A stretch of DNA of 64,000 nucleotides. Source: a virus (taxonomy: Duplodnaviria; Heunggongvirae; Uroviricota; Caudoviricetes). Made by a program: the position numbers and the translations under genes. This document shows positions 5,676-64,000 of the stretch, in pieces. How positions within the stretch are numbered: the first letter of the stretch is position 1; each line of letters opens with the position of its first letter. Location: positions 3,322-67,321 of the IMG/VR virus record IMGVR_UViG_3300042301_002383, one strand, 5' to 3'. The notes under the pieces are model-generated. The model saw only the letters and a list, made by a program, of their open reading frames with translations. It did not search any database and was not told the DNA's origin.

Positions 5676-5714
5676 AATAAATTTGGTGGGTAATAAAAAA
5701 GTATTATCTTTGTA
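5676..5714 (+). promoter_or_regulatory. Bacteroidetes-type promoter
   Basis: TTTAAAATAAATTTGG ... TATCTTTG before ATG 5745. Confidence 0.6.
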
Positions 5715-6555: not shown

Positions 6556-6589
6556 TTTGGTAAAATAAAATTAAAGTTATATCTTTGTA
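6550..6589 (+). promoter_or_regulatory. Bacteroidetes-type promoter
   Basis: AATAATTTGG ... TATCTTTG before ATG 6618. Confidence 0.55.
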
Positions 6590-7117: not shown

Positions 7118-7155
7118 ATTATTTGGAATAATAGTATCCCTGTTATATCTTTGTC
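7118..7155 (+). promoter_or_regulatory. Bacteroidetes-type promoter
   Basis: ATTTGG at ~7122, TATCTTTG at ~7146-7153. Confidence 0.55.
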
Positions 7156-13129: not shown

Positions 13130-13170
13130 CACAAATATACGAAATGTTTTTGTATATTCCAAATATATGG
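13130..13170 (-). promoter_or_regulatory. minus-strand promoter (extended -33 GGAATAT(A/T)C + -7 TATATTTG)
   Basis: minus reads ..CATATATTTGGAATATACAAAAACATTTCGTATATTTGTGGTATG. Confidence 0.55.
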
Positions 13171-21603: not shown

Positions 21604-21640
21604 CACAAATATACGAATAGTATTTTGAATATCCAAAAAT
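21604..21640 (-). promoter_or_regulatory. minus-strand promoter (TTTTTGGATATTC ... cgTATATTTG)
   Basis: minus reads TTTTTGGATATTCAAAATACTATTCGTATATTTGTGATATG (ATG = 21601). Confidence 0.55.
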
Positions 21641-24778: not shown

Positions 24779-24828
24779 CTTTTATTATTTGTTTACATGC
24801 AAATATACAATTATATTTTGTATATACC

Positions 24829-24859
24829 AAAAAAAAAACCCTGAAATTTATTCAGGGTT
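24829..24859 (-). terminator. rho-independent terminator (palindromic, could act in both directions)
   Basis: AACCCTGAA-ttta-TTCAGGGTT perfect 9-bp stem; minus strand then reads TTTTTTTTTT. Confidence 0.7.
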
Positions 24860-27239: not shown

Positions 27240-27276
27240 TACAAATATATATGGTTTTTTAGAATATTCCAAAAAT
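27240..27276 (-). promoter_or_regulatory. minus-strand promoter (TTTTGGAATATTC ... TATATTTG)
   Basis: minus reads TTTTTGGAATATTCTAAAAAACCATATATATTTGTACTCTAAAACAATAAAACATG (ATG = 27222). Confidence 0.6.
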
Positions 27277-30619: not shown

Positions 30620-30660
30620 AACAAAGATATATAAAATTTTTGAATATTCCAAAAAATAGC
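30620..30660 (-). promoter_or_regulatory. minus-strand promoter (TTTTTGGAATATTCAAAAA ... TATCTTTG)
   Basis: minus reads GCTATTTTTTGGAATATTCAAAAATTTTATATATCTTTGTTATATG. Confidence 0.6.
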
Positions 30661-34750: not shown

Positions 34751-34806
34751 TGTGTGTTAGTTTATACACAAAAATATAAATTTTTTTTGATATTCCAAAA
34801 TATTGC

Positions 34807-39274: not shown

Positions 39275-39670
39275 CTATACTTTTATCCATTTTTGTGTTG
39301 AATCTAACTTAAAGGACCCAACATATTTTTTATTCCATTGATTGGGGTTAATCAATGATAAAAATGTACTATCATTTTCTCTCACATATAAGTGATATAT
39401 TTCCCCCATTACTGGTATAAATGAGTATGTGGACTGATAGACTAATTCGTTCCAATTAACCTCATCGATTAACTTTTGGAACTCCTCTTTTAACTCATCG
39501 TACCTTGATTTAAATTGTTTGTTGGCCACACCTGCTTGCATTTGTTTCCAACCACCAACATCCTCTAATTTAATTGCAGGAGCACCCTGATTACTACCAT
39601 AAGTTAATTCTCTTTGGTAGTACCCCTTCTCTTCATCCCATACAACTAAGTCAGGTTTCTTTTTAGCCAT
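39275..39670 (-). CDS. hypothetical protein
   Basis: 131-aa ORF. Confidence 0.5.
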   Translation of the reverse strand: MAKKKPDLVVWDEEKGYYQRELTYGSNQGAPAIKLEDVGGWKQMQAGVANKQFKSRYDELKEEFQKLIDEVNWNELVYQSTYSFIPVMGEIYHLYVRENDSTFLSLINPNQWNKKYVGSFKLDSTQKWIKV

Positions 39671-39837
39671 TACATGATTTGATTTTTATCATCTTCGTGG
39701 TCATCACCCCAATTAAGAAAATCATCACCCTTATAATCCGGATGGTTATTTTTCATGTAATCGATACCAACAACCCATCTCCAAGAAATCAACCCAACAA
39801 TAAAAAATATTATTCCAAAAATCGGTAAGTGTTCCAT
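39670..39837 (-). CDS. small membrane protein
   Basis: internal ATG (MEHLPIFGIIFFIVGLISW...) of track ORF 39670..39882, avoiding 44-nt overlap. Confidence 0.4.
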   Translation of the reverse strand: MEHLPIFGIIFFIVGLISWRWVVGIDYMKNNHPDYKGDDFLNWGDDHEDDKNQIM

Positions 39838-39838
39838 G

Positions 39839-40201
39839 TTATTTATTCTTTTTGTTATGTGCTTTAGGTTTACCATCTTCATCTAACAAAACAAAGATAA
39901 TTTTTTCTATTTTAATTATCGACTGTTTGGTGTTTTTATTTCTAACGTCACAACATAACGTTACTGATGTTGTTCCAAATTTAACCAAGTCCATACCAAA
40001 TTCAATTACATCACCAACCTTTGCAGTTGTTACGAAATCAATCTCAGACATTGCTTTGGTAACAATGTTTGGACTACCCAATTGACAGATTGCAAATATT
40101 GCTGCCTCTTCATCTATCCATTTCAATAGTTGTCCACCAAATAATGTTCCCCTCGGGTTTAAATCACCTGGTTTAATCAACTTTCGTGTCCTGTATATCA
40201 T
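39839..40201 (-). CDS. hotdog-fold acyl-CoA thioesterase (YciA-like)
   Basis: 120 aa; LNPRGTLFGGQLLKWIDEEAAIFA...SEIDFVTTAKVGDVIEF aligns with the YciA/4HBT signature. Confidence 0.7.
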   Translation of the reverse strand: MIYRTRKLIKPGDLNPRGTLFGGQLLKWIDEEAAIFAICQLGSPNIVTKAMSEIDFVTTAKVGDVIEFGMDLVKFGTTSVTLCCDVRNKNTKQSIIKIEKIIFVLLDEDGKPKAHNKKNK

Positions 40202-40793
40202 CAGTTAAAAACTTTAAAATTTTCTCTTTAATACCACTCTGCTTAATTCCCTCCGAATCTAACGGAGTCTCCACAAAATTATCTAATCCCCATTCATGTT
40301 CGTATGGTACACTATAGTCCAAACCAGATTTCCCCATTCTCAAATCATCGATAGATACCCAATGAGTTATTTCGGGATGGTCAACAAGATACTGTTTGAT
40401 TTCAATAGTTCTGGTTTGTTCTAACTCCCAAGATCGGGACCAAATAAAACCAGCAGGATATGCATCAATATACCAAGTACATTGACTTAAGTTTGGGGTG
40501 AGAGCTATAGGTTTCTTTTTGATTCCTTGTGACTCATAATACTCACCCATCTCCTCAACAGTGGCCCATCTTTTCCAATCAGATGAGACAACAATTTCAG
40601 CATCAGTTTTTTCCAATATTTCATTTAACAACTTAATAGCTTTCTTATTAAAATTATCAAATCTCATCTCAACAGGCATCTCTAAAATACCTTGACTCAT
40701 CTTACGTCCAAACTCTTTTTGTTTCTTGTGTCTACCTCCCCATTCGGTGGATAAACATATCACCCCATCGTGATCTAAAAATATTACTTTCAT
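40173..40793 (-). CDS. HAD-superfamily phosphatase (HAD-IIIA / GmhB-like?)
   Basis: 206 aa; N-terminal VIFLDHDGVI (motif I DxDG); subfamily tentative. Confidence 0.5.
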   Translation of the reverse strand: MKVIFLDHDGVICLSTEWGGRHKKQKEFGRKMSQGILEMPVEMRFDNFNKKAIKLLNEILEKTDAEIVVSSDWKRWATVEEMGEYYESQGIKKKPIALTPNLSQCTWYIDAYPAGFIWSRSWELEQTRTIEIKQYLVDHPEITHWVSIDDLRMGKSGLDYSVPYEHEWGLDNFVETPLDSEGIKQSGIKEKILKFLTDDIQDTKVD

Positions 40794-40839
40794 ATAATGT
40801 TATTAACCTATACAAATATACGAAATATTTTTAATTATA

Positions 40840-41265
40840 TTAAGAGTTTTCGTTAATATATTGCAATTGTGGAGACCAAGTACCTTCAGATATTACCGTT
40901 GGTTTACTGTTCCTATCAATCATTACCCACTCCACATTAACAATACCCCAAGGTTCAAATTGTTCTAAAACATCTGACAATGTGAAACATTTACAACTAT
41001 AAATGTCAAATTGAGCCATTGCCGGTTGACCTTGATCCCAAATATGTATTGATGAGTGTGATGTTGCGAGAGTTACAGTTCCCGTTAATCCTTCATTACC
41101 CGGATAATCCACGTAGACACTCGTCGGTCCACCAACCACTTCCATCTTAACTTTATGAACTAAATCAATGAACCATTTATTGAGAACATCCACCTCTTTT
41201 GGTGGGTTTGTAATCCAAATCTTCATTAGAAGATGTTGGTGATACGGTACGAATTCTTCCTGCAT
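40840..41265 (-). CDS. pyruvoyl-dependent decarboxylase, S-adenosylmethionine decarboxylase (SpeH/class 1)-like
   Basis: 141 aa; VTLATSHSSIHIWDQG aligns with the SpeH autoprocessing region VVISESHLTIHTWPE (serine retained); substrate cannot be inferred. Confidence 0.6.
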   Translation of the reverse strand: MQEEFVPYHQHLLMKIWITNPPKEVDVLNKWFIDLVHKVKMEVVGGPTSVYVDYPGNEGLTGTVTLATSHSSIHIWDQGQPAMAQFDIYSCKCFTLSDVLEQFEPWGIVNVEWVMIDRNSKPTVISEGTWSPQLQYINENS

Positions 41266-41323
41266 TAATGTATTTTTTACTACACATATATATCAGGAAA
41301 ATTGTATTTTTCTAAGTTCTATT

Positions 41324-41737
41324 TTATTTAATTAACCAAGATGATGATTGAATTTTATCCCCTAAACCGTCAATCAATTTTATACCTAACCAATCACATA
41401 CTTGTCTCTCAGGGATAGCATCATTAAGTTGGTCCCCACCATTTGCAAACATTAGTTCGTTTGTTGAATCTTCTAAAGAATGAATGATTCCGATTGTTTG
41501 AGAAACAGTTCTATCCGTATCTACAGATAAGAATACCCTGTCAACCATTTTTAGATTTTGAATGATGAACATTCTCTCGTCTTCATCCTGAAACTCTTTA
41601 CTACCCTTTAACTCTCTCTGCTTGTCATTGTTAACAATGACGTAGAGTTTATCACCAAGTTCTTTGGACTTATTGAAATAATCAATGTGTCCTTTATGAA
41701 GAGGGTTAAAGTATCCACTTACAATCACAATTTTCAT
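41324..41737 (-). CDS. cytidylyl-/adenylyl-transferase (TagD / RfaE domain-II-like)
   Basis: 137 aa; (H/T)xGH motif in IVIVSGYFNPLHKGHIDYF plus ANGGDQ. Confidence 0.7.
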   Translation of the reverse strand: MKIVIVSGYFNPLHKGHIDYFNKSKELGDKLYVIVNNDKQRELKGSKEFQDEDERMFIIQNLKMVDRVFLSVDTDRTVSQTIGIIHSLEDSTNELMFANGGDQLNDAIPERQVCDWLGIKLIDGLGDKIQSSSWLIK

Positions 41738-42706: not shown

Positions 42707-43321
42707 TCATATACAACTTTTTAATATTTCTAAACATAAGTCCGCCGGTATCTTACTTCTTTCGTAAGCATTGGCTCGACCCTGAGTTCCTGTTCTACTA
42801 CCTCTTGGTGCAGCAACGTGACAAGGATCACCGTTCTTACACATTGGTTTTGGTGTCCACATAATACTGTTCGTCCATATGTCAGTTGGTTTCATTCTTT
42901 CATCACCATATTGACAATAGGTTACCGATTGTTTATTTAACCCTTTAACAACATCCAATTTACGTAGAACTCCTCTTGGATTTTCCATGAACCAAAATGT
43001 TGGTTGGAAGTGATTAATTATTTCTAATGTCTTCTTAACTAACTCAATACCCAACTTCGCAGTTTCTGTTTTAGGTATGTAAGCACCTTTGCCACCAGAC
43101 CAATGATGTCCGATTGCGGCAACACTAAATCCGGTACACGGCGGTGATGCCCAAATTATATCTGGTTGAAACGGAACTTTGGTAACATCAAAATCTAATA
43201 TACTAATTGGGTAATGAATACCTTCAAACTCAATTAAATCGGATGAGAATACCTCCATCCCTAAACTTTCAGCAATCTTTCCAACAGAACGACTACCAGC
43301 AAATAATTCTAACACTTTCAT
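42707..43321 (-). CDS. small C5-cytosine methyltransferase-like protein (no obvious target-recognition domain)
   Basis: 204 aa; motif I LELFAGSRSVG, motif IV ASPPCTGFS, motif VI FMENPRGV. Confidence 0.6.
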   Translation of the reverse strand: MKVLELFAGSRSVGKIAESLGMEVFSSDLIEFEGIHYPISILDFDVTKVPFQPDIIWASPPCTGFSVAAIGHHWSGGKGAYIPKTETAKLGIELVKKTLEIINHFQPTFWFMENPRGVLRKLDVVKGLNKQSVTYCQYGDERMKPTDIWTNSIMWTPKPMCKNGDPCHVAAPRGSRTGTQGRANAYERSKIPADLCLEILKSCI

Positions 43322-43602
43322 TAACGTAAGTGTTTAAATTTGTTCGCAAGGTTGTTGATGAAATTTTCTTCTTCAATTGATAACAAATCTCTACACTTTG
43401 CAAGACGTTCTAAATTCTCCCAAAATATTTGATCATTGATGTTTGGTCGACGAACACCGTTGTTCTTACTTGTGGTTTCTTCTGAAGGTTGAATATGTCC
43501 ATCTTCTTCTAAAATCTCAACTAATCTTTTTAATTCTCTTTGATTACATGAGTCAATAAACTCACTTGGGTCGATGTCAACCTCAGCTGTAAATTCCGGC
43601 AT
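43321..43602 (-). CDS. hypothetical protein
   Basis: 93-aa ORF. Confidence 0.5.
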   Translation of the reverse strand: MPEFTAEVDIDPSEFIDSCNQRELKRLVEILEEDGHIQPSEETTSKNNGVRRPNINDQIFWENLERLAKCRDLLSIEEENFINNLANKFKHLR

Positions 43603-43658
43603 AATATTATGTTTTATTGTTTAATAAAAATATACGAAAAATTTTTGAAATAAAAAAA

Positions 43659-43982
43659 TTAAAGAGCGAAACTCTCACCACAACCACAAGTACGTGATGC
43701 GTTAGGATTTATAAATTGAAAACCCTTTCCGTTTAATCCATCTGAAAATTCTAATTCGGTACCAAAAAGATAAAGTAATGATTTATTGTCTATTAAAATT
43801 TGTACCCCTTTATCTTCCGAAAGTGTGTCCGATGGTTGTTGTTCCGTATCAAATGAAAGATCATATGACAACCCACTACATCCACCTCCTTTAACCGCCA
43901 CTCTTACAAATGGGGTTTGGAATCCACTTTCTTCAATTAGTGACTTTAATTTCTTCGCCGCTGTTTCTGATACTGTTACCAT
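43659..43982 (-). CDS. iscA: A-type Fe-S cluster carrier (IscA/SufA/HesB family)
   Basis: 107 aa; VKGGGCSGLSY and C-terminal CGCGESF. Confidence 0.8.
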   Translation of the reverse strand: MVTVSETAAKKLKSLIEESGFQTPFVRVAVKGGGCSGLSYDLSFDTEQQPSDTLSEDKGVQILIDNKSLLYLFGTELEFSDGLNGKGFQFINPNASRTCGCGESFAL

Positions 43983-44392
43983 TAAATGTGAGTTTCCCCA
44001 AAGATTAGTTGTTCTAATCCTTGTTTTTGTCTATAATCGTTTATTGCTGATTTAATTGCATCTTCCGCCAATACCGAACAATGTATTTTTACCGGTGGTA
44101 AATTTAATTCTTCAACCAAATCCATATTATCAATGGTTACCGCCTCATCTAAACTCTTACCTTTTAACCATTCTGTTGCTACGGAAGAAGATGCAATTGC
44201 TGAACCACAACCAAAGGTTTTGAATTTGGCGTCGGTTATAATATTGTCAACCACTTCAATTTGTAATCTCATTACATCACCACACTCAGGAGCACCGACT
44301 AACCCAGTACCAACGTTTGATTTAGACTTGTCTAATGTTCCTACGTTTTTAGGGTTTGAGTAGTGGTCCAAGACCTTATCTGAATATGCCAT
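43982..44392 (-). CDS. iscU: Fe-S cluster assembly scaffold IscU/NifU
   Basis: 136 aa; HYSNPKNVG, GAPECGDVM, FKTFGCGSAIASSS, HCSVLAEDAIKSAINDY; stop/start overlap with iscA (TAATG). Confidence 0.85.
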   Translation of the reverse strand: MAYSDKVLDHYSNPKNVGTLDKSKSNVGTGLVGAPECGDVMRLQIEVVDNIITDAKFKTFGCGSAIASSSVATEWLKGKSLDEAVTIDNMDLVEELNLPPVKIHCSVLAEDAIKSAINDYRQKQGLEQLIFGETHI

Positions 44393-44415
44393 AGTATTTG
44401 TTTATATGATAAATA

Positions 44416-44661
44416 TCAGTTAATTAGTTCATCAGTATTGATGTTATGGTCATCTAATATTTCGTGTATCTTTTCATACACCAATTCCAAAGCGTCATAT
44501 TTGTCAATTTCTTTACCCTCCATTGACCATTCTAAACCTTTTTTAGTGTTATGCACAATGTCCCATAAAGCCATTGCCATATCTAAAGATTTAACGGCTC
44601 TTTTGTGTGCCATAACATCATCCGGATCACTCAAATCGTATTCTAACGTTGCTTTCGCCAT
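44416..44661 (-). CDS. hypothetical protein
   Basis: 81-aa ORF. Confidence 0.5.
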   Translation of the reverse strand: MAKATLEYDLSDPDDVMAHKRAVKSLDMAMALWDIVHNTKKGLEWSMEGKEIDKYDALELVYEKIHEILDDHNINTDELIN

Positions 44662-44795
44662 AAGTCACTTAGTTTTTTAGTTGGTCGTTTAGTTCTATAT
44701 CCACCATCTTCCATTTCTTCTAAAAGTGGCGCTCTCCAAATCTCATATGCAATCCATACACCTGAAACAATTAATAATAATGCAAAATACTTCAT
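44643..44795 (-). CDS. possible 50-aa membrane peptide (MKYFALLLIVSGVWIAYEIW...)
   Basis: hand-translated, below ORF cutoff; approximate coordinates. Confidence 0.25.
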   Translation of the reverse strand: MKYFALLLIVSGVWIAYEIWRAPLLEEMEDGGYRTKRPTKKLSDLWRKQR

Positions 44796-44805
44796 ATGTT
44801 AATTT

Positions 44806-45129
44806 TTATATTGTGAAATATTGTGTCTTCCAAAACTGCCACCATTTCTTTTTTTGAACTGGTTTACATTCCGAAAATGGATTGTTCCCAAATGAAACTG
44901 AGTTGGAGTATTTTGATGTCAATACATTTAAAAATACTTCATGATATTTTTTTGGTATTTCGTCAAAATCCGCACTTATGTTAACATTTAAATACTTTGG
45001 TCCATCTTCAGTATAAACTGTAAATTGTTCATTCATACTAATCATAGTACTAGCCTTAATATTCAAGTACTTTGTTCCACCTAAATTTAGGTCACCGCTA
45101 ATATGTTTTTTAAAATCCTCGTCCGACAT
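44806..45129 (-). CDS. hypothetical protein
   Basis: 107-aa ORF. Confidence 0.5.
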   Translation of the reverse strand: MSDEDFKKHISGDLNLGGTKYLNIKASTMISMNEQFTVYTEDGPKYLNVNISADFDEIPKKYHEVFLNVLTSKYSNSVSFGNNPFSECKPVQKKKWWQFWKTQYFTI

Positions 45130-45130
45130 T

Positions 45131-45433
45131 TTACTCTGTTTGTGTGGTTAATATTAATTCAAATTCTTCTGCTCCATTTTTATTTTTCTCTTTAAACATT
45201 TCGAAGGCAACTTCATAACGACCTAATTGAACCGCAGTAACAAATAGTTCCGATTTTAAACTATCTCTTTCATCAATTAACATTTGTTTTTCAATGTCAC
45301 CACCTTGTATGAAATCATTACCTTCCTTACATTTCTGCAACTCATCTTGTTGTTGAAAATAAAAGAACGTCATAATTACCAAACCCAACAAGGACATTGC
45401 GATTCCTCCTCTAAATTTTGTTTCTCTTGTCAT
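45131..45433 (-). CDS. hypothetical membrane-anchored protein
   Basis: 100 aa; one TM helix. Confidence 0.5.
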   Translation of the reverse strand: MTRETKFRGGIAMSLLGLVIMTFFYFQQQDELQKCKEGNDFIQGGDIEKQMLIDERDSLKSELFVTAVQLGRYEVAFEMFKEKNKNGAEEFELILTTQTE

Positions 45434-46932: not shown

Positions 46933-47015
46933 AACTGTTTTGTTTAATGATGAAACAAAGTTATGTATATTTTATGAAATACAAAAAAAAATTTAGAATA
47001 TTTTTTAAATTATTC

Positions 47016-50559: not shown

Positions 50560-51095
50560 TCTAAACGACCAGCACCTTTATATGAACTAAGATAACGGGG
50601 TTCGGATAAGCTACTTATCTTGACCCCTTCCTTCTTATTTGCCGCATGTACAAAGGTATCCTTACCTAAATACACCCCACAATGCCATCCACTTGGACTT
50701 TGTGTACTCCTAAAGAATACAATATCTCCGACCGCTAAACTATCTTTTTTAATTCTAGTTGTTTGTTTCCATTGTTCCGCACAAGTGTTATTTAGTTTCT
50801 TACCATATACATCCCAATAAAGTTTTTTAGCAAATTGGGAACAATCAATACCGTTTTTTGTGTTTCCACCTAATTGATATTTGGCTCCATACCAATCCAT
50901 AACAAATGTTGATAATGGAGTTAGTTGTTTATCGTTTAACCTTATTAACAATGGTTTATTGTCGACCAAAACATACATATAATCACCGTCCGCCGATAAT
51001 TTGTTTTGATTTGCGTGGTCTATAATTTGGTTTTGAGCTAAACAGGTTATATTCGTTATGAATATTAATATAAGTAAAATTTTAATCTTTTTCAT
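50556..51095 (-). CDS. NlpC/P60 (C40) cell-wall peptidase with signal peptide
   Basis: 179 aa; signal peptide; catalytic Cys GIDCSQFA, GDIVFF, His in GWHCGVYLG. Confidence 0.75.
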   Translation of the reverse strand: MKKIKILLILIFITNITCLAQNQIIDHANQNKLSADGDYMYVLVDNKPLLIRLNDKQLTPLSTFVMDWYGAKYQLGGNTKNGIDCSQFAKKLYWDVYGKKLNNTCAEQWKQTTRIKKDSLAVGDIVFFRSTQSPSGWHCGVYLGKDTFVHAANKKEGVKISSLSEPRYLSSYKGAGRLD

Positions 51096-51330
51096 TTTTT
51101 ATTATGTTAATTGTTATTCCTGCAGAACCTGCACTTACTTTGTATGTGTTATGTCGATTATCATTTATCCACCCATACTTCTTAAATCTGAATATTGTAA
51201 CCAACTTACCTTCAAAAACGGCATAAATTGCATTATCCGCATAATCAATTGATGGGTGTATAATGTGTCCTAATTTCCAGGACTCTATAAATTCTTCTTC
51301 TAATTCGTCAGGGGTAATATGAATAAACAT
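51082..51330 (-). CDS. hypothetical protein
   Basis: 82-aa ORF. Confidence 0.45.
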   Translation of the reverse strand: MFIHITPDELEEEFIESWKLGHIIHPSIDYADNAIYAVFEGKLVTIFRFKKYGWINDNRHNTYKVSAGSAGITINIIKNEKD

Positions 51331-51331
51331 A

Positions 51332-52495
51332 CTAGTTCGATAGTTTTGCCTTTATAGATGGATGTGATTCATACCCATCGATTATGAATTGATGGGGTTG
51401 TAAATTGTTTATAAACCCATCAAATGTATCTTTATGGTGTTCAAAGTGTGCCAACACTAAGGGACTAAAATTTAATGTTGGTAAATTTTTAAATGGTTCT
51501 CTACCGATTTGTTCTTTAGCTTGTTCGATGTGATTCGAATACAGATGAACATCACCTAAGTTACCAATTAATTCATCGGGTATCATATTAACTTCCATAG
51601 CTAGAATTTCTAATAACAAACCATATGATGCAATATTAAATGGTAACCCTAAGAATGTATCTACACTTCGTTGATTCCACATTAGAGATATTGCTCGTTT
51701 AGGTATATTATATGATTCTAACTCTTCGCTCAAACCACCACCAAATGGTACAATATCATCTACCATTGATTTAAATCTTTCCTCACCAACTTTCTTTTTT
51801 AATAGCTCCCACATCTCTTCTCCTGTTAACTTTCTAGTGTACACTTGAAATCCATAATGACAAGGTGGTAAGACCATTTCATCCAATTGACCAACATTCC
51901 AAGCGTTTACAAGTAATCGTCTACTATCTGGATTTGTTTTCAACTCATCAATTAAGTTTTGAATTTGATCAATCCATTTATCACCTTCAACGTATGTATC
52001 ATGTCCGGTTAATGGGTCTTTTATTGTTGTCTTAATTAATGTTTTAGTGTGCCACTCTCTCCATTGTGCACCGTAGATTGGTCCTAACTCACCAAAAATA
52101 TTACAAAATCTTTCATCCGTTTTAATTAAACGAATAAAATTTTCTTTATCCCATGGTTCTCCGTTATTAGACCATAATGAATTTCCTACCCAAGCAGCAT
52201 AACTATTCTCATATCTTTTATAAGCATCACCATCCCAAATGTGACAATCATTATCAACAAGGTATTTGATGTTAGTGTCACCACGGAGGAACCATAACAA
52301 TTCAGTTACCATTGTCTTCCATGCCATTTTCTTCGTTGTCAACAATGGAAATCCCTGTGACATTTTATGTCTAATCTGACGACCAAATACCGATATGGTA
52401 CCAGTGCCAGTCCTATCAGTTTTAATAACTCCATTATCTAAAATGTCTTGTAATAATTCTTGATATTTTGAATCCAATCTATTCATACTTACCAT
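51332..52495 (-). CDS. thyA: thymidylate synthase ThyA homologue with two large insertions
   Basis: 387 aa (ThyA is usually ~264-320); DRTGTGT, ELLWFL.GDTN, catalytic PCH, DVFLGLPFNIASY (Asn retained), GDVHLYSNH; about 50-aa insert after DGDAY and about 45-aa insert after PCHYGFQ. Confidence 0.8.
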   Translation of the reverse strand: MVSMNRLDSKYQELLQDILDNGVIKTDRTGTGTISVFGRQIRHKMSQGFPLLTTKKMAWKTMVTELLWFLRGDTNIKYLVDNDCHIWDGDAYKRYENSYAAWVGNSLWSNNGEPWDKENFIRLIKTDERFCNIFGELGPIYGAQWREWHTKTLIKTTIKDPLTGHDTYVEGDKWIDQIQNLIDELKTNPDSRRLLVNAWNVGQLDEMVLPPCHYGFQVYTRKLTGEEMWELLKKKVGEERFKSMVDDIVPFGGGLSEELESYNIPKRAISLMWNQRSVDTFLGLPFNIASYGLLLEILAMEVNMIPDELIGNLGDVHLYSNHIEQAKEQIGREPFKNLPTLNFSPLVLAHFEHHKDTFDGFINNLQPHQFIIDGYESHPSIKAKLSN

Positions 52496-54563: not shown

Positions 54564-54610
54564 AAAACAAATATATAAAATTCTTTTGATAATTCCAAAT
54601 AATTATTGTT

Positions 54611-55962: not shown

Positions 55963-56160
55963 ATGAAAGCAGATACAAAATTAACTAGTGTTAACATTTT
56001 AGATGATGTTTACAAAAGGTTTAAAATTAAATCGATTGAAGGTTCAATGAATCTACAAAAATTAGTAAATCGTTCTTTAGATTTATATTCTAAAGATGAA
56101 AACTTTAGAAATTTAATAAACAACCACAATGGTTTAGCAACAACAGGGTCTAAATTTTAA
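55963..56160 (+). CDS. small ribbon-helix-helix-like regulator (tentative)
   Basis: 65 aa; predicted beta-strand (TSVNILDD) followed by two short helices; sits directly upstream of the glycosyltransferase operon. Confidence 0.45.
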   Translation: MKADTKLTSVNILDDVYKRFKIKSIEGSMNLQKLVNRSLDLYSKDENFRNLINNHNGLATTGSKF

Positions 56161-56161
56161 T

Positions 56162-57511
56162 ATGAAGAAAAAAATACTTTTATTATCAGATGATTTAAGA
56201 ATGACAAGTGGTATTGCCACTATGTCCAAAGAATTCGTTTTAGGAACCATTCACAAATATGATTGGATTCAATTAGGTGCGGCAATTAAACATCCAGAAC
56301 TTGGTAAGATAGTTGACATCAATGATGATGTTAGAAAAAGAACCGGTATTAAAGATGCCAATTTAAAAATTATACCATATAATGGTTATGGTGATATTGG
56401 TATATTAAGAAAATTAATCGCTGAAGAGAAACCAGATGCAATTTTACATTTCACGGACCCGCACTATTGGCAATGGTTATATGATAACGAACATGAGATT
56501 AGACAACAAGTCCCAATTTTATTTTATCATATTTGGGATAACTTACCTGACCCATATTACAATAGAGATTACTATGAATGTTGTGATTGGTTAGGTTGTA
56601 TCTCTAAACAAACCTATGGTATCGTTCATCGTGTTGGTAAAACCACAAGGGAAGTTACACATAAACCATTGGAAGATTGGCAAATTAGTTACGTTCCTCA
56701 TGGAATCAATCCTGATGTGTTTAAACCAGTTAAGAAAGTGGATGAAGAATTATCTAAACTTATTCATGGTGATAAGAAATATGATTTCATTCTATTCTAT
56801 AACAATAGAAACATTAGAAGAAAACAACCATCTGATGTGATTTATTCATTTAAATTATTCTGTGACAGTTTACCTAAAAAAGAATCTGATAAATGTTTGT
56901 TATTGATGCACACCAATCCCGTGGATGAGAATGGTACAGATTTAAATGCAGTAATTAATGAGTTATGTCCTAACTACGATGTTAAATTTACCAACGCTAA
57001 ATTAGAACAAGACAAATTAAATGATTTATATAACATTGTTGATTGTACAATCAACATTGCAAATAATGAGGGGTTTGGATTAACGACCGCAGAATCATTA
57101 ATGGCAGGTACACCAATTATTGTTAGCGTGACAGGAGGTCTACAAGATCAATGTGGATTTAATTTTAGTGCTGATGATTATATTGAGGTTGGGACGTTGC
57201 ACAAATCTAAAGGGACACCACATGGTGATTGGGTTATACCTGTTTGGGCCGCAGCAACTAATTTAAATGGATCGGTACCAACACCTTATATCTTTGATGA
57301 TAGGGTTAATGACGATGATGTTGCAGATGCAATTATGACAGTATATAAATGGGGACGTAAAGAAAGAAAAGAAAGAGGAAAGAAAGGTAGAGAATTTATG
57401 AAGAAGAACTTATCTTCTAAAGTAATGTCAGATACTTTTATTGAGGGAATAGAAAAAACATTAAATAACTTTAAACCGAGAAAAAGATTCGATTTATATA
57501 AGATAGTATAA
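56162..57511 (+). CDS. GT4-family (GT-B) glycosyltransferase
   Basis: 449 aa; C-terminal NEGFGLTTAESLMAGTPIIVSVTGG (E-x7-E region). Confidence 0.8.
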   Translation: MKKKILLLSDDLRMTSGIATMSKEFVLGTIHKYDWIQLGAAIKHPELGKIVDINDDVRKRTGIKDANLKIIPYNGYGDIGILRKLIAEEKPDAILHFTDPHYWQWLYDNEHEIRQQVPILFYHIWDNLPDPYYNRDYYECCDWLGCISKQTYGIVHRVGKTTREVTHKPLEDWQISYVPHGINPDVFKPVKKVDEELSKLIHGDKKYDFILFYNNRNIRRKQPSDVIYSFKLFCDSLPKKESDKCLLLMHTNPVDENGTDLNAVINELCPNYDVKFTNAKLEQDKLNDLYNIVDCTINIANNEGFGLTTAESLMAGTPIIVSVTGGLQDQCGFNFSADDYIEVGTLHKSKGTPHGDWVIPVWAAATNLNGSVPTPYIFDDRVNDDDVADAIMTVYKWGRKERKERGKKGREFMKKNLSSKVMSDTFIEGIEKTLNNFKPRKRFDLYKIV

Positions 57512-57512
57512 T

Positions 57513-58763
57513 ATGAGCAAACCAAGTTTATTATTTAGAGGGCCGGTAAAAACAAGAAGTGGGTACGGCGCACACTCAAGAGATTTATTACAAGCACTGT
57601 ATGAAATGAATCTATTCGATATTAATGTTGATAGTTGTATGTGGGGATCAACTCCATTAACGGCATTAGAAGAAGAAAATACATTTCACAAATGGATTGA
57701 AAGCGTAATTGTAACAAGAATAGAACATAGACCAGACATCTATGTTCAAGTTACAGTACCAAATGAATTTCAAACATTAGGTAAATTCAACGTAGGGATA
57801 ACTGCTGGAATTGAAACTACCGTTGCACCTAAAGAATGGATTGATGGGTGCAATAAAATGGATTTAATTGTTACAACATCCACATTTTCGAAAGATGTAT
57901 TGTTATCTACCGTTTACAATGAAACGGAAAACAACACGGGTAAATTAATTAAACAACATAAGATTGAAAAACCAATTAAGGTTTTGTTTGAAGGTGTTGA
58001 TTTGTCAATTTACAATAACGAGTACAAAGGTTTAGATATTGATATTAAAGAGGAGTTCGCATTTCTTTTCGTTGGTCATTGGTTAAAAGGTAATCTTGGT
58101 CAAGATAGAAAAGACATCGGTATGTTAATTAAATGTTTTAGTAAATCATTTGAGGACGTTGAAAATCCACCGGCTTTAGTTCTTAAAACATCTTCAGCAA
58201 CATTTTCAGTTAAGGAAAGAGAATCTTTCAGAAAACGTATTAGTGATTTAGTTAAAGACATTAAAAATCCACCTCCAATTTATTTGTTGTTTGGTGAATT
58301 AACTAACGATGAAATGAATCAATTATATAATCATCCAAAGATTAAAGCAATGATATCATTAACTAAAGGTGAAGGGTTTGGTAGACCTCTATTAGAATTC
58401 ACTATGTCAGGTAAACCTGTGATAGCATCTAATTGGTCAGGTCATAAAGATTTCTTACCTATGGATAAGGCAATCATGGTCGGTGGGTCATTAACTGAAG
58501 TTGATAATAGTGCGGTTGATACGTTTATTATTAAAGGTTCTAAGTGGTTTACCGCAAATTATAATGAGGCTTCGGAGGTGATGAAATTAGTGCATGAAGA
58601 TTATAATAAATTCTTAGAAAAATCAGAAACTTTAAGGATTGAAAATAAAGAAAAGTTTTCGTTAGATAAAATGAGAGAAACATTTAAAGATATGTTTCAA
58701 TTATTCCAAACTAAACCACAGGAACAAAAATTAGTTCTACCTAAATTAACAAAAACTAAATAA
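57513..58763 (+). CDS. GT-B fold glycosyltransferase (GT4-like)
   Basis: 416 aa; GEGFGRPLLEFTMSGKPVIAS; 1-nt spacing from previous gene. Confidence 0.7.
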   Translation: MSKPSLLFRGPVKTRSGYGAHSRDLLQALYEMNLFDINVDSCMWGSTPLTALEEENTFHKWIESVIVTRIEHRPDIYVQVTVPNEFQTLGKFNVGITAGIETTVAPKEWIDGCNKMDLIVTTSTFSKDVLLSTVYNETENNTGKLIKQHKIEKPIKVLFEGVDLSIYNNEYKGLDIDIKEEFAFLFVGHWLKGNLGQDRKDIGMLIKCFSKSFEDVENPPALVLKTSSATFSVKERESFRKRISDLVKDIKNPPPIYLLFGELTNDEMNQLYNHPKIKAMISLTKGEGFGRPLLEFTMSGKPVIASNWSGHKDFLPMDKAIMVGGSLTEVDNSAVDTFIIKGSKWFTANYNEASEVMKLVHEDYNKFLEKSETLRIENKEKFSLDKMRETFKDMFQLFQTKPQEQKLVLPKLTKTK

Positions 58764-58764
58764 T

Positions 58765-59040
58765 ATGGCAAGAGGTAGAAAAAAAATAAAGGATGAATTA
58801 TTACAATCTGTTATTGATAAATTAACAATCGACGACACACCAAAAATTGAAACATACATGCCATGTGAATGGGTGATTCAATTTGATAATGATGAACCAC
58901 AATTATTTACAACCGCAGATGAAACTGTAGAATCACCAGAAGTTATTATTAGAATACAAAATACTAACGAAGGTTATATTAAGTTTACAGACCCAACATC
59001 GGGTAAAACATTTAAATTATTTGCAAGACCAAAAAAATAG
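58765..59040 (+). CDS. hypothetical protein, tandem paralogue of 59043..59288
   Basis: 91 aa; C-terminal GKTFKLFARPKK vs NKVFKLFAREIQ, and VIQFDNDEPQLFT vs FCFQFGDEEPIVFAT. Confidence 0.5.
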   Translation: MARGRKKIKDELLQSVIDKLTIDDTPKIETYMPCEWVIQFDNDEPQLFTTADETVESPEVIIRIQNTNEGYIKFTDPTSGKTFKLFARPKK

Positions 59041-59042
59041 TA

Positions 59043-59288
59043 ATGAACTTTAAATTTTTTCAAAAGGAGGAATTAAAACATAATAATTTTATTGTGTTAG
59101 AACCTACAAGATTTAATCCACAAAATGTTGAGTTTTGTTTTCAATTTGGTGATGAGGAACCAATTGTATTTGCAACTGGTCCTAATGAATGTAGTATTCA
59201 TTTAAGTCCAACAACCAACACCAACATGACGTTCAATGATAATAATAAAGTTTTTAAATTATTCGCAAGAGAAATACAAAATGGTTAA
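59043..59288 (+). CDS. FKFF-N-terminal family protein 7
   Basis: 81 aa; starts MNFKFFQKEELK. Confidence 0.5.
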   Translation: MNFKFFQKEELKHNNFIVLEPTRFNPQNVEFCFQFGDEEPIVFATGPNECSIHLSPTTNTNMTFNDNNKVFKLFAREIQNG

Positions 59289-59523
59289 AAATTTTAAATT
59301 TTTTCATGGGGTAATTAGGAGTAGTTTAACTGCGACATGGACTCATCAAGAGGGAGAGTTGTTTGGTATCGACGCAGAAGAAGAATTAACAAGATTGATG
59401 TCTAATGAAATTGCTAGAGAAATTGACAATAACATTATTGAGGAATTAACAAGAAGAATTAATGGTGGGAATCCATCGATATTTGGGGGTCCGATTATCG
59501 GTTTTAACAATAATGTAGCATGA
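59281..59523 (+). CDS. FKFF-N-terminal family protein 8
   Basis: ATG at ~59281 (MVKNFKFFHGVIRS...) inside track ORF 59236..59523, overlapping the previous stop (ATGGTTAA); EELTRRINGG matches 19816..20298. Confidence 0.5.
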   Translation: MVKNFKFFHGVIRSSLTATWTHQEGELFGIDAEEELTRLMSNEIAREIDNNIIEELTRRINGGNPSIFGGPIIGFNNNVA

Positions 59524-59610
59524 GATGTGAAAGACATAATTGGGACACGGAAGATAGGGAGTGGTGTTGGAAATGTGAAGAATTAACATTAAAAGAAAAT
59601 AAACAAAAAT

Positions 59611-60234
59611 ATGAAGATAAGTTTCGCCATAACAGTTTGCAACGAGTTGGAGGAAATCAAGAGATTAGTTCCGTTCTTATTGAAACACAAAAGGTCTCAG
59701 GACGAGATTGTGATTCTATATGATGACAAGAATGGTAACAAAGAAATATTAGATTTCTTATTACCATACAATAAATTACCTAACGTTCAAACATGGAGAG
59801 GTTTTGATTGGAATAACAATTTCGCAGATTGGAAAAATACTTTAAACGAATATTGTGCTGGTGATTACATTTACCAAATTGATGCTGATGAAATGATTAG
59901 TGAATATATGGTTAAAAATTTGCACGATATATTAGGAATGAATCCTGATGTGGATTTAATATTTGTCCCAAGAATAAACACTGTTGAGGGTTTAACCGAT
60001 AATCATATTAGAAAATGGGGGTGGCATGTAAACGATAAGGGGTGGGTTAACTTTCCGGATGCTCAGGGAAGAATTTACAAAAAGGGAATGACTTGGTATG
60101 GTCGTGTACATGAAAGAATAATTGGCGGTCAAAAATTCGCATCGTTACCAACAGATGACGATGATTATTTTATTCAACACCATAAAACAATAGAACGTCA
60201 AGAAAAACAAAATAATTTTTATCAATCAATTTAA
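59611..60234 (+). CDS. GT2-like glycosyltransferase
   Basis: 207 aa; ISFAITVCNE N-terminus and IYQIDADE (DxD). Confidence 0.6.
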   Translation: MKISFAITVCNELEEIKRLVPFLLKHKRSQDEIVILYDDKNGNKEILDFLLPYNKLPNVQTWRGFDWNNNFADWKNTLNEYCAGDYIYQIDADEMISEYMVKNLHDILGMNPDVDLIFVPRINTVEGLTDNHIRKWGWHVNDKGWVNFPDAQGRIYKKGMTWYGRVHERIIGGQKFASLPTDDDDYFIQHHKTIERQEKQNNFYQSI

Positions 60235-60242
60235 GATATTAT

Positions 60243-60824
60243 ATGAGTAAAATAGAATTTATTATACCAACATACAATAGACCACACCATTTGATGTGTC
60301 TTCTTAATTCACTTTGTGCACAAAGAAGTGACAAGTGGTGTGCACATGTTATTGCCGATTGTCCTCCTGAAGGTTCATTGGATAAAGTTATGGATTATTT
60401 TAAGGATAATGAAAAGATAAAATTTACAATTTTACCTGAACGTTATAATGATTGGGGTCACACCCCTAGAAATTATGGTGTAGAACATTCAACGGAAGAT
60501 TGGATTGTTATGACAGGTGAAGATAATTACTATGTTCCAGTATTCGTTGATACTTTTTTATCTGTTGTTAGTGAAAAAGTGGGATTTGTATTTTGTAATA
60601 TGGTTCATAATTGGAAAAATTTTGAGTATATTGGTATAGATTGTGAACCTTCGTGGGGTAAAATCGATATTGGAAATTTTATGATTAAAAGAAAATTTGC
60701 TAAACAAATGAGATTAAATCCGTCAATTGAACAAGCAGATGGGGTTTATGTTGAAGAATTTAAGGTAAAATTTCCTTATATACAAATAATTAAAATACAT
60801 AAAGTATTATATATACACAATTAA
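60243..60824 (+). CDS. GT2 glycosyltransferase
   Basis: 193 aa; IEFIIPTYNRPHHL, MTGEDNYY. Confidence 0.65.
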   Translation: MSKIEFIIPTYNRPHHLMCLLNSLCAQRSDKWCAHVIADCPPEGSLDKVMDYFKDNEKIKFTILPERYNDWGHTPRNYGVEHSTEDWIVMTGEDNYYVPVFVDTFLSVVSEKVGFVFCNMVHNWKNFEYIGIDCEPSWGKIDIGNFMIKRKFAKQMRLNPSIEQADGVYVEEFKVKFPYIQIIKIHKVLYIHN

Positions 60825-60825
60825 T

Positions 60826-61443
60826 ATGCACGCTACAGCAGAACAAAACGCAAGAAGATTTTTTAACACTTATGTTAATAATAAAAACGGTAATTTTTTA
60901 GAAATAGGATCATATCTAAGTAGTTTTAACATACGGTCATTAGCACCGAATGGTTCTAACTATGTGGGTGTTGATTTAGGTGCCGGCCCCGGTGTTGATA
61001 TTGTTTTAACTGACCCATATGTTTTGCCATTTGGTGATAATTCATTTGACTTTGTTGTTAGTTCATCTTGTTTTGAACATAGTGAATTTTTTTGGTTAAC
61101 ATATATGGAAGTTATGAGAGTATTGAAACCTTCTGGACTGTTTTATTTAAACGCTCCATCAAATGGTGATTTTCATAGATTTCCAGTCGATTGTTGGAGA
61201 TTCTTTCCTGATAGTGGTAATGCATTATCTAATTGGTCAAGACGTAATGGAATGAATACTGCAGTACTTGAACAATATACAAGTGGTGGGGGTACCGACA
61301 TATGGTGCGATTACGTGTCAATATTTATAAAAGATATAGATATGATTAACAATTACCCAAATAGAATAATAACAAATTTTAATGATTATACAAATGGTTC
61401 GGTATTTCCACACGAAACATTATTAAATAAGAAATTATGGTAG
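60826..61443 (+). CDS. class I SAM-dependent methyltransferase
   Basis: 205 aa; FLEIGSY...VGVDLGAGPGVD glycine-rich motif I; FDFVVSSSCFEH. Confidence 0.6.
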   Translation: MHATAEQNARRFFNTYVNNKNGNFLEIGSYLSSFNIRSLAPNGSNYVGVDLGAGPGVDIVLTDPYVLPFGDNSFDFVVSSSCFEHSEFFWLTYMEVMRVLKPSGLFYLNAPSNGDFHRFPVDCWRFFPDSGNALSNWSRRNGMNTAVLEQYTSGGGTDIWCDYVSIFIKDIDMINNYPNRIITNFNDYTNGSVFPHETLLNKKLW

Positions 61444-61985
61444 ATAGATTATATACAATGCGTGATGAAACATACGCAAAAGGTTTGGAGGATTTAATTC
61501 AATATGTTAAACAACATGGAGATACTAAAAAAATGACTATGATTGAGATTGGTTCATATGCTGGAGAATCTACACAAATGTTCTCTAATGAATTTGAGAC
61601 AGTTATTTCAATTGACCCCTACATTAATGATTATGACCCAAATGATATAACTTGTAGTTATATGAAATTAGAAAAAGTTTATGATACATTTAAAGAGGTA
61701 GTTGACCGAAATAATAATATCAAACATATCAGAATGACGTCTGATGATGCAATAGAATCATTAATAGGTATGTCGGTTGATTTTATTTATATTGATGGAT
61801 TACATACCTATGAACAAATAAAAAAAGATATAACGAATTATCTTCCTTTACTTAAACCTAACTGTTTAATTGGTGGTCATGATTACCACGTAAACTGGGG
61901 TGGTGTAGTAAAAGGTGTTAATGAATTGTTAGGTGAACCAGACACAACGTTCTCTGACACTAGTTGGATTAAACTTATAAAATAA
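61437..61985 (+). CDS. class I SAM-dependent O-methyltransferase (Methyltransf_24 / TylF-MycF-like sugar O-MTase)
   Basis: 182 aa; MIEIGSYAGEST ... IYIDGLHTYEQIKKDI ... GGHDY. Confidence 0.65.
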   Translation: MVDRLYTMRDETYAKGLEDLIQYVKQHGDTKKMTMIEIGSYAGESTQMFSNEFETVISIDPYINDYDPNDITCSYMKLEKVYDTFKEVVDRNNNIKHIRMTSDDAIESLIGMSVDFIYIDGLHTYEQIKKDITNYLPLLKPNCLIGGHDYHVNWGGVVKGVNELLGEPDTTFSDTSWIKLIK

Positions 61986-61986
61986 T

Positions 61987-62529
61987 ATGTTTTTAAATAT
62001 AATAACTCCCTGTAGTCGACCTAAAAATCTACTAGAAATTTCTAAAAGTATAAACATACCGAGAGAAAACTATCGATGGATTGTTGTTTTTGATATGGAT
62101 GCATTACCACCATCCGAATTAATACCTTTAAATTGTGAAACACATCTACATCGTAACAAATTAAGTATTGCGGGGCATTCACAAAGAAATTATGCCTTAA
62201 GTTTAATAAATGATGGACACATCTATTCTAATGATGATGATACAATTATACACCCAAATTTATGGGATAATATAAAAGACTTGGATGATGATTTCATATC
62301 ATTTGAACAAGAGGATAAAAATCATAATTTAAGATTAAAGGGAAATGTAATAAGATTATATAATATCGATAGTCATAATTTTATAGTTAAAAGGTCAATA
62401 ATAGGTGAGACTTCTTTTATAGTAGGTGATTATAATGCCGATGGTTATTTTGCTGAAGAATGTTATTCTAAATCATCATCAACCATTTTTATACCCAAAG
62501 TTCTCTCAACATATAATTCATTAAGATGA
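61987..62529 (+). CDS. hypothetical protein (possible glycosyltransferase-like)
   Basis: 180 aa; IITPCSRPKNL N-terminus and NDDD acidic motif; weak. Confidence 0.45.
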   Translation: MFLNIITPCSRPKNLLEISKSINIPRENYRWIVVFDMDALPPSELIPLNCETHLHRNKLSIAGHSQRNYALSLINDGHIYSNDDDTIIHPNLWDNIKDLDDDFISFEQEDKNHNLRLKGNVIRLYNIDSHNFIVKRSIIGETSFIVGDYNADGYFAEECYSKSSSTIFIPKVLSTYNSLR

Positions 62530-63632
62530 ACATAACATTTGTAATGGCAGTGTATAATAAGCTAGAGTTAACAAAAGAATGTTATCGTTACTTACGCGAC
62601 TTATATCCCGAAGCCCCATTAGTAATTAGTAGCGGTGGTTCAAGTGATGGTACAAAGGAATGGTTGGAATCATTAGAAGATGATGACTACCTATCTTATC
62701 TTCACGATGATGATAGATTAACATTCTCTGACACATACAATGCTGGTATTAAATTAGTCGATACTGAAAAATTAGTATTGATACATAACGATATGGTTAT
62801 TGGTGAAGGATTCTTAGAGGCAATCGAAAGATTATTAACACCTAATATGTTGTTATCATATACAACAATTGAACCCCCAATATTCAAAGGTCATAAAAGA
62901 CCGGGTAAAGTATTGCTAGAATTAGGTTCGTCATTTTTAAATTTTGATAACTATCACTTCAACAACTACGTTAAACAATGGAAGGATAGTGATAACCTAT
63001 ATGATGGTGCAGTATTCTTCATGAGTGGATATAAAAAAATGTTTGAAGATGTTGGTGGATTTGACGGGTTTAGTTTTGTTCCGTGTTTCTGTGAGGATGA
63101 TGATTTCTTAATTCGTGCGAAACTAAAAGGGTATGAATTAAAAACTTGTGATTCAGCAATAACTTATCATTTTGTTTCGCAGACATCCAGATTTAGTGAT
63201 GAAATGAAGACCGATAGATTTAGAATAGAAATTTGTTCAAACAGAAACTTTGTAAGAAAGTGGGGTATATCAATTGCTTCATTCAACGAATTAAGATATT
63301 GGGAAGATAAAGATTTTAAATATAAAACGTTTTCAATGGGTTTAACAACTCGTAACAAATCAAGATTGGGTGAAGTGGAACCATACTTCGATAAAATCGA
63401 TTTAGGGGAGATTCCTGAGGACTACATAGAGAATGAACAAAAGAATACACGTTATGATTTAAGGTCGAAATTTACCCTACAGGACACCGTTGATGTGATG
63501 GTATACGAGATGAATCCATTCACGGATGAAGACATGTATATATTGAATAAAATAAGATTATCGTTACCATATTATGAGCCGGACGAATACGAGGTTGGAA
63601 ATATGAAGATAGTTATTAAAAAAATTATTTAA
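62526..63632 (+). CDS. GT2 glycosyltransferase with C-terminal extension
   Basis: 368 aa; ITFVMAVYNK, LIHNDMVI. Confidence 0.7.
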   Translation: MNITFVMAVYNKLELTKECYRYLRDLYPEAPLVISSGGSSDGTKEWLESLEDDDYLSYLHDDDRLTFSDTYNAGIKLVDTEKLVLIHNDMVIGEGFLEAIERLLTPNMLLSYTTIEPPIFKGHKRPGKVLLELGSSFLNFDNYHFNNYVKQWKDSDNLYDGAVFFMSGYKKMFEDVGGFDGFSFVPCFCEDDDFLIRAKLKGYELKTCDSAITYHFVSQTSRFSDEMKTDRFRIEICSNRNFVRKWGISIASFNELRYWEDKDFKYKTFSMGLTTRNKSRLGEVEPYFDKIDLGEIPEDYIENEQKNTRYDLRSKFTLQDTVDVMVYEMNPFTDEDMYILNKIRLSLPYYEPDEYEVGNMKIVIKKII

Positions 63633-64000
63633 TGAATGTACTTGTAACTGGAGGTGCTGGATTTGTCGGTACCAATTTAATTAAAAGGTTATTAAAAGAT
63701 GGTCACGATGTAACATCCTTAGATAACTACTTAAGTGGTTTTAGTTCTAACCACCAAGATGGAGCAAATTACATATATGGTGATGTTAGAAATTTAACAA
63801 TACTAGATAATCTGAAATACGATATTGTATTTCATTTAGCGGCAATTGCAAGAATACAACCATCATTTAAACATCCGGTTGAGTATTTTGAAACAAATAC
63901 AAATGGTACATTGAATATGGTACAATATTGTATTAAGAACGATATACCATTAGTTTATGCAGGAAGTAGTTCACACCATAGCGGTAAGTTTAAAAATCCA
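63632..64000 (+). CDS. NAD-dependent sugar epimerase/dehydratase (SDR), 3'-truncated by window edge
   Basis: VLVTGGAGFVGTNL Rossmann motif; ATG at ~63632 overlapping the previous stop; runs past the window end. Confidence 0.75.
   Translation, partial: MNVLVTGGAGFVGTNLIKRLLKDGHDVTSLDNYLSGFSSNHQDGANYIYGDVRNLTILDNLKYDIVFHLAAIARIQPSFKHPVEYFETNTNGTLNMVQYCIKNDIPLVYAGSSSHHSGKFKNP

Follow-up and report, generated by a model that had tools for sequence, protein, structure and literature searches.

A Bacteroidota-derived iscU and A-type carrier gene pair as a probable iron-sulfur supply module of a predicted large freshwater tailed phage

Why would a tailed phage carry two genes for iron-sulfur (Fe-S) cluster assembly and leave the cysteine desulfurase, IscS, to its host? 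The question is raised by a 64,000-nucleotide (nt) stretch of viral DNA (Caudoviricetes; positions 3,322 to 67,321 of IMG/VR record IMGVR_UViG_3300042301_002383), referred to here as the window, in which a first-pass annotation had noticed two adjoining minus-strand genes and read them as IscU and IscA. All open reading frame (ORF) and profile coordinates given below refer to the window. Our analysis indicates that the pair probably works as an auxiliary metabolic module, carried by a large tailed phage that infects freshwater Bacteroidota, and would raise Fe-S supply by way of the host's IscS.

Profile and structure matches support a real scaffold and a real carrier, the former with the features expected of a canonical IscU, as the first-pass annotation had observed. 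Both ORFs lie where that annotation had placed them (43659-44392), and both products pass their family profile cutoffs. More specifically, the IscU product reached 213.9 bits against the NCBIfam equivalog model TIGR01999, "Fe-S cluster assembly scaffold IscU" (cutoff 192.4), 170.3 bits (2.4e-50) against Pfam PF01592, NifU_N (cutoff 22), and an E-value of 1.3e-40 against phrog_8429, a "NifU-like" auxiliary-metabolic-gene family; its best matches among solved structures are Haemophilus influenzae IscU (1Q48, 3.3e-60) and Escherichia coli IscU (2L4X, 3LVL). Aligned with solved IscU, the ligand residues are intact (C37 and D39 in GAPECGD, C62 in GCGS, then H104 and C105). A motif that had been described as LPPVK-like is indeed present and is in fact an exact LPPVK, at residues 98 to 102, ahead of H104-C105.

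The second protein scored 118.9 bits against TIGR00049, the A-type carrier subfamily (cutoff 58.8), 64.8 bits (1e-17) against Pfam PF01521, Fe-S_biosyn (cutoff 26.3), and 2.2e-32 against phrog_17776, with HI1723 (ErpA-like, 7e-25) and E. coli IscA (1R94, 4e-24) as its best solved structures. Its three cysteines are present in GGGCSG (C35) and CGCGESF (C99, C101), i.e., as C-X63-C-G-C. For both genes, the E-values place the matches far beyond chance. The name IscA fared less well than the family assignment: TIGR00049 is passed, and the IscA equivalog models are not (TIGR02011, 95.7 bits versus a cutoff of 150.6; NF007049, 95 versus 181). The protein also falls below the cutoffs of the SufA equivalog and of ErpA (NF010147, 108 bits versus 117), the latter being its best-scoring equivalog. 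Because none of the IscA, ErpA and SufA equivalog cutoffs is reached, "A-type carrier" is the accurate name for a protein that is the single Bacteroidota-type carrier and not an IscA equivalog; only its operon position in the donor speaks for the label "IscA". The reported translational coupling was borne out, since TAATG can be read on the minus strand at 43984-43980, where base 43982 belongs both to the stop codon of iscU and to the start codon of the carrier gene.

To place the pair among cellular genes, we used a scan limited to one genome per species, which returned 80 loci. All 80 cellular IscU loci belong to Bacteroidota, mostly Chitinophagaceae, at 78-87% identity; Sediminibacterium (87%), Ilyomonas limi (84%) and Parasediminibacterium paludis (81-83%) are nearest, followed after the Chitinophagaceae by Sphingobacteriales and Cytophagales (78-85%). 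The carrier gene lies 3' of iscU on the same strand in 80/80 of these loci, and IscS is encoded 5' of iscU in 80/80. Because this order holds throughout, the donor operon is iscS-iscU-carrier, of which the phage has the last two genes only. In neighbor-joining trees, the split between viral and bacterial sequences had bootstrap support of 59 for IscU alone, 68 for the carrier alone and 100/100 for the concatenated proteins. Since the viral sequences separate from the bacterial ones at 100/100 in the concatenated tree, a single acquisition followed by divergence inside phages is supported, and repeated recent capture from hosts was rejected on the same split.

Relatives of the pair are widespread among viruses. 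At least 588 IMG/VR contigs encode one, the best 80 being 88-99% identical, and the protein database holds thousands of variants on contigs of up to about 240 kilobases (kb). The carrier follows iscU on the same strand in 82 of 88 viral loci, and most of the others end just past iscU; no gene intervenes in 50 of 78 related loci, where the two genes either overlap (-1 or -4) or are at most about 14 nt apart. Degeneracy of key cysteines in related isolates, named by the first-pass annotation as grounds for doubt, was looked for and not seen: C37, D39, C62, LPPVK, H104 and C105 are invariant in 88 viral IscU copies, and among 82 viral carriers C35 is kept in 81 and C99 and C101 in all 82. Ratios of nonsynonymous to synonymous substitution rates (dN/dS) point to strong purifying selection on both genes in the viral lineage, with medians of 0.052 (IscU) and 0.143 (carrier) and nearly saturated synonymous sites. 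Viral carriers are of two types, one of 107 amino acids (aa), as in the window, and one of 109-111 aa, with 52-64% identity between them. No position in IscU or in the carrier separates viral from host proteins, and neofunctionalization was rejected on this ground. In some relatives, the two genes are separated by inserts of 1.1-5.3 kb that encode glycosyltransferases, methyltransferases and epimerases; because these and a ferredoxin gene described below are found there, the junction is an insertion hot spot.

Is the surrounding DNA that of a phage, and which host does it point to? The window has 33% GC, is 91% coding and holds 121 tightly packed, mostly small ORFs, with the phage-typical families GP88, DUF932, T5orf172, HNH and PcfJ, three DNA methylases, Pyr_excise and a thymidylate-synthase-like gene. 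No structural gene occurs in the window itself, and a tRNA scan found none. A weak Pfam "Gp23" match falls on an ORF of roughly 80 aa that is not a capsid gene. A second contig (L171 in our numbering of related contigs) is 100% identical to window positions 60439-64000, and beyond them it encodes a virion structural protein (phrog_8510, 1.6e-18) as well as a collagen-like tail fiber of at least 902 aa (phrog_366, 4.6e-18; phrog_5073, 8.6e-17). The source is thus a tailed phage of the jumbo class (roughly 290-kb class), because related IMG/VR contigs reach 287, 298 and 335 kb. No close relative was found among 50,697 deposited phage records, in which neither megablast of positions 43000-45200 nor tblastn of the 631-aa PcfJ-like protein gave a match. 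When IscU and the carrier were compared with this collection by tblastn, most hits were bacterial-looking records, the exceptions being Phage C48C1, the only phage record with a comparable IscU (72% identity; no adjoining carrier), and two huge uncultured phages. These encode A-type carriers at 55% identity (LR756504.1, 393370-393693, in a 636-kb genome) and 41% identity (LR756511.1, 324450-324782, in a 595-kb genome), so Fe-S carrier genes recur in unrelated very large phages.

The Shine-Dalgarno 5-mer core precedes none of the 121 window genes, and their leaders are A-rich (55-62% A at positions -13 to -5). Matches to the Bacteroidetes promoter consensus TTTG-N-TAnnTTTG number 19 in the window, versus 4.2 +/- 2.3 in shuffled sequences, none of 100 shuffles reaching 19, and they mostly sit just 5' of genes. 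The element often reads AAAATAAATTTGG-N19-TATaTTTG, which fits the Bacteroidetes -33/-7 consensus. The same promoter and leader traits have been described for Bacteroidetes (PMC6847099). The host is probably a member of the Bacteroidota, because three independent signals (the nearest cellular IscU, the promoter type and the missing Shine-Dalgarno core) point to it; IMG sample numbers suggest a freshwater habitat for the lineage. One contig of this phage lineage (L082, IMGVR_UViG_GVMAG-S-3300010160-96_000001) is filed under a giant-virus (GVMAG) bin name, and it was probably mis-binned, because its IscU, ferredoxin and carrier genes are of the phage type.

The promoter-like matches also bear on how the pair may be transcribed (Table 1). 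The nearest same-strand match 5' of the pair, at 46956-46985, lies ahead of a C5-methylase gene and probably marks the start of the transcription unit to which the pair belongs; downstream, the minus strand has its next match at 34769-34799. Because these are the nearest matches, the pair probably sits inside a polycistronic unit of roughly 12 kb. A sigma-70 promoter scan around the pair gave background levels with no excess, and a terminator scan found none flanking it. Promoter-like matches reach their highest density ahead of the small genes on the plus strand at 0.5-7 kb, a stretch that may represent an early region. Neither of the two small ORFs that flank the pair had a match in a Pfam scan.

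Table 1. Positions in the window of the gene pair, its flanking ORFs and promoter-like matches
Feature	Position	Strand	Basis
iscU, Fe-S cluster assembly scaffold, 136 aa	43982..44392	-	TIGR01999, NifU_N, phrog_8429, PDB matches
A-type Fe-S carrier (IscA/ErpA superfamily, Bacteroidota type), 107 aa	43659..43982	-	TIGR00049, Fe-S_biosyn, phrog_17776
TAATG stop/start overlap of iscU and carrier gene	43980..43984	-	read from sequence
81-aa ORF directly 5' of iscU	44416..44661	-	in 27 related loci
93-aa acidic ORF directly 3' of carrier	43321..43602	-	in 22 related loci
Promoter-like matches	537-568, 1059-1090, 2354-2385, 3101-3131, 4478-4509, 5682-5712, 6556-6587, 7122-7153	+	consensus
Promoter-like matches	13132-13163, 21606-21637, 24800-24831, 27242-27273, 30622-30653, 34769-34799, 46956-46985, 54568-54599	-	consensus

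If the pair supplies clusters, where does its sulfur come from, and which proteins receive the product? With a Chitinophagaceae IscS as query, tblastn gave a best E-value of 0.08 in the window and in about 115 viral loci, i.e., no IscS, in agreement with the first-pass annotation, which had seen none nearby. That annotation had likewise seen no client in the window, and our scans concur: no CX3CX2C motif occurs in window ORFs of at least 50 aa, and Radical_SAM, Fer4 and other Fe-S Pfam families are absent from the roughly 115 window ORFs searched. The sole CX2CX2C match, in a short 64-aa plus-strand ORF (51058-51252), was judged spurious. The further claim, that a phage with its own scaffold implies an Fe-S client, was borne out in the clade, where two candidates emerged. 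In a conserved-cysteine screen of neighboring gene clusters, only a ferredoxin and a small C5-methylase-like protein (six invariant cysteines) were found. The ferredoxin is a 102-aa FdxA-like protein whose gene, present in 31 of 88 viral loci (e.g., L026, 10422-10730; L041; L056; L081), is inserted between those of IscU and the carrier or lies near them. The protein matches Fer4_7 at 1.4e-9 and FdxA below cutoff, and it has nine invariant cysteines and the pattern CX2CX4CX3CP ... CX2CX2CX3CP; it is absent from the window and from all 80 bacterial isc loci.

The other candidate, a radical S-adenosylmethionine (SAM) protein of 349 aa, was reached by a contig walk from the right side of the window (L171 to L179 to L199). 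It scored 32 bits against PF04055 (cutoff 29.5); among NCBIfam models, a twitch-domain radical-SAM family came first but stayed below cutoff. CX3CX2C is kept in 82/82 homologues together with six more conserved cysteines. Relatives occur on 91 IMG/VR contigs, and in at least seven cases the gene shares a contig with IscU at a distance of 34-45 kb. Among these contigs, L015, L017 and L022 show synteny with the window, to which they are about 83% identical in nucleotide sequence. A homologue with 53% identity lies 6.5 kb from IscU on L057, and one locus encodes a glycosyltransferase-radical-SAM fusion. By synteny only, the gene should lie about 17-23 kb past the right end of the window; the placement is of this kind because an exact 39-mer search beyond L171, in IMG/VR and the JGI metagenome collection, gave no match.

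The account that we consider probable, a phage module that raises Fe-S supply through host IscS, can be spelled out as follows. An ancestor of the phage clade would have copied the last two genes of the host iscS-iscU-carrier operon. We infer that during infection a phage promoter would drive extra IscU and carrier beyond host control, and that phage IscU would receive its sulfur from the host's IscS, a catalytic cysteine desulfurase for which the phage has no gene. Clusters would form on the cysteines C37, C62 and C105, together with D39 and H104, and would then be released, possibly aided by host HscA, if present, at the intact LPPVK; the carrier would hand them to apo-proteins. The net result would be more Fe-S for phage clients (the radical-SAM protein and, in many relatives, the FdxA-like ferredoxin) and for host Fe-S enzymes. 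Several points weigh against this account: the host already has its own iscU and carrier, and a benefit of extra copies is assumed; the window itself contains no Fe-S client; the radical-SAM gene is placed in the source genome by synteny only, and its link to IscU is co-occurrence at tens of kilobases, not adjacency; and a consensus match is the sole basis of the promoter assignment.

The main rival holds that only host enzymes matter. The extra pair would then sustain host Fe-S enzymes of respiration, central metabolism, and isoprenoid and cofactor synthesis while a long infection runs its course in lake water that is oxic, sunlit and poor in iron, and phage Fe-S proteins would be incidental. 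Such genes are usually interpreted in this way in the literature (PMC5332604), and a window without a client agrees with it, as does the finding that no residues distinguish viral from host proteins, which should therefore serve the same targets. The module, on at least 588 contigs, is also far more widespread than the radical-SAM gene (91 contigs) or the ferredoxin (31/88 loci), but contig fragmentation makes this comparison of counts unreliable. Phage clients are argued for by the ferredoxin that many relatives encode between iscU and the carrier gene, and by the conserved radical-SAM gene on the same genomes, and we regard service to host enzymes only as possible, if on balance doubtful.

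IscS is a shared hub with competing acceptors, and the phage, which has no IscS, must engage the host enzyme. Phage IscU might therefore act mainly by occupying host IscS, which would divert persulfide sulfur from other acceptors (tRNA thiolation, thiamine, molybdopterin) or block them, and so reprogram the host instead of supplying clusters; the IscU N-terminus, MAYS.KV.DHY, agrees with that of the E. coli protein, for which a crystal structure in complex with IscS exists (3LVL). A pure decoy, however, needs neither cluster ligands nor LPPVK nor a carrier, all of which are invariant and strongly selected, and in 82 of 88 loci the carrier has been inherited along with iscU. Because the ligands and the carrier partner are so strictly conserved, we hold such a hijack of sulfur flux to be very unlikely. 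That the pair might not be a phage feature at all, owing to host DNA joined by mis-assembly or mis-binning or to a recent functionless passenger, is suggested by the 78-87% identity of IscU to Bacteroidota genes, by the giant-virus label of L082, and by several "phage" database records with IscU that look like bacterial contigs. Yet hundreds of independent assemblies contain the pair with phage neighbors, viral copies group in a clade apart from the bacterial ones (100/100) with dN/dS of 0.05-0.14, local GC and gene signals fit the rest of the window, and tail-fiber genes lie on an identical contig, all of which leaves this explanation scarcely credible.

A narrower version of the Fe-S supply module that we favor is unlikely and is offered as speculation: iscU-(ferredoxin)-carrier could be a dedicated supply line for the clade's twitch-like radical-SAM enzyme, and phage-made clusters would then be needed for the post-translational modification of a virion or tail-fiber-associated protein. 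Close relatives encode, next to their tail-fiber genes, a divergent radical-SAM protein, a 2OG-Fe(II) oxygenase and a roughly 495-aa protein whose C-terminus is a dense cysteine tail, ISCPNWTCTNVCWSVCPSCPKYMSCQSNYCFPVC (tail-fiber-side genes at L199 10973-12460 and 5069-6118, both on the minus strand; homologues at L057 214-1707 and 2444-3517). This tail could be a substrate for radical-SAM cross-linking. If the idea were true, an auxiliary metabolic gene would be tied to virion maturation, a link so far undescribed.

Other genes of the window and its relatives deserve brief mention. Two genes 3' of the carrier, positions 42707-43321 (-) encode a 204-aa truncated C5-cytosine-methylase-like protein, found in 37 related loci, with six invariant cysteines that include a CKNGDPCH stretch. 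Farther along in the 3' direction, 39275-41737 (-) carries a run of small metabolic genes (DUF2452, 4HBT thioesterase, HAD-family, S-adenosylmethionine decarboxylase-like of 141 aa and cytidylyltransferase-like of 137 aa) that resembles a second auxiliary metabolic cluster. Some relatives encode, less than 10 kb from iscU, an APS-kinase-like protein (PF01583, 9e-17) and a small heat-shock protein of the Hsp20 type (2.6e-12), both absent from the window (e.g., L071 8892-9338 and L068 7263-7691; clusters of 13 and 16 loci). The product of 51332-52495 (-), 387 aa long, matches the 266-position thymidylate-synthase Pfam model end to end (9.5e-90) and has about 120 extra residues; it might be a nucleotide-modifying, hydroxymethylase-like variant and not plain ThyA. 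On the plus strand, a block at 55963-63632 that runs on into L171 (3194-4039) and adjoins the tail-fiber genes encodes glycosyltransferases (two GT1, two GT2), several SAM methyltransferases, a dTDP-sugar epimerase and an NAD-dependent epimerase, which suggests that virion proteins or the host surface are modified with sugars.

Phage genes for IscU and A-type carriers are already published auxiliary metabolic genes, and both their class and their proposed role are known. Nishimura et al. 2017 (PMC5332604) reported 16 marine viral genomes, 14 with the carrier and 6 with IscU, alongside radical-SAM genes, and cited earlier virome reports; Du et al. 2022 (PMC9038755) found iscU and erpA in HMO-2011-type phages, and Kieft et al. 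2021 (PMC8190135) listed NifU and IscA among proteins common to sulfur phages. Hurwitz 2013 (PMC4053976) does not mention these genes. PHROGs already contains both families, and our literature search found no description of a freshwater, Bacteroidota-derived lineage. The present locus therefore overturns nothing; it adds to the phages with Fe-S assembly genes a well-documented freshwater jumbo-phage lineage that probably infects Bacteroidota. It also gives substance to three points that are usually left vague: two stoichiometric components of the donor operon are kept and the catalytic IscS is left to the host; the pair appears to have been acquired once and is strongly constrained across a very diverse clade; and genes for Fe-S clients, the in-module ferredoxin and the same-genome radical-SAM protein, travel with it. 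The proposal that a phage boosts Fe-S supply for its own enzymes can now be tested with defined gene sets.

How, then, does the module compare with known systems? Like the published viral genes, it comprises the same two families in tailed phages without IscS, with radical-SAM or other Fe-S genes in the same genomes, and it leads to the same cluster-supply proposal; the marine IscU of Nishimura et al. groups with gammaproteobacterial homologues, whereas the genes described here are of Bacteroidota derivation and come from a probably freshwater lineage with genomes of jumbo size. Against E. coli and H. influenzae proteins, phage IscU aligns over its full length (1e-56 to 1e-60) with the ligands and LPPVK in register, and the carrier aligns over its full length with IscA/ErpA (1R94, 2APN) with its three cysteines in place. 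The proteobacterial operon adds iscR, hscB, hscA and fdx, none of which the phage encodes, and the phage carrier is equidistant from ErpA-type (HI1723) and IscA-type proteins, reaching neither equivalog cutoff. With the iscS-iscU-carrier operon of Chitinophagaceae and other Bacteroidota, the phage pair shares IscU length, ligands and LPPVK, and the host carriers, like that of the phage, score best against the ErpA model (about 103 bits) but below its cutoff. The two differ in that the host operon has IscS; host genes usually lie tens of bases apart, whereas the phage genes overlap (TAATG); a ferredoxin insert between the genes occurs in some phages and in 0/80 Bacteroidota host loci; and the phage carrier, only 55-68% identical to Bacteroidota host carriers, has split into two viral types.

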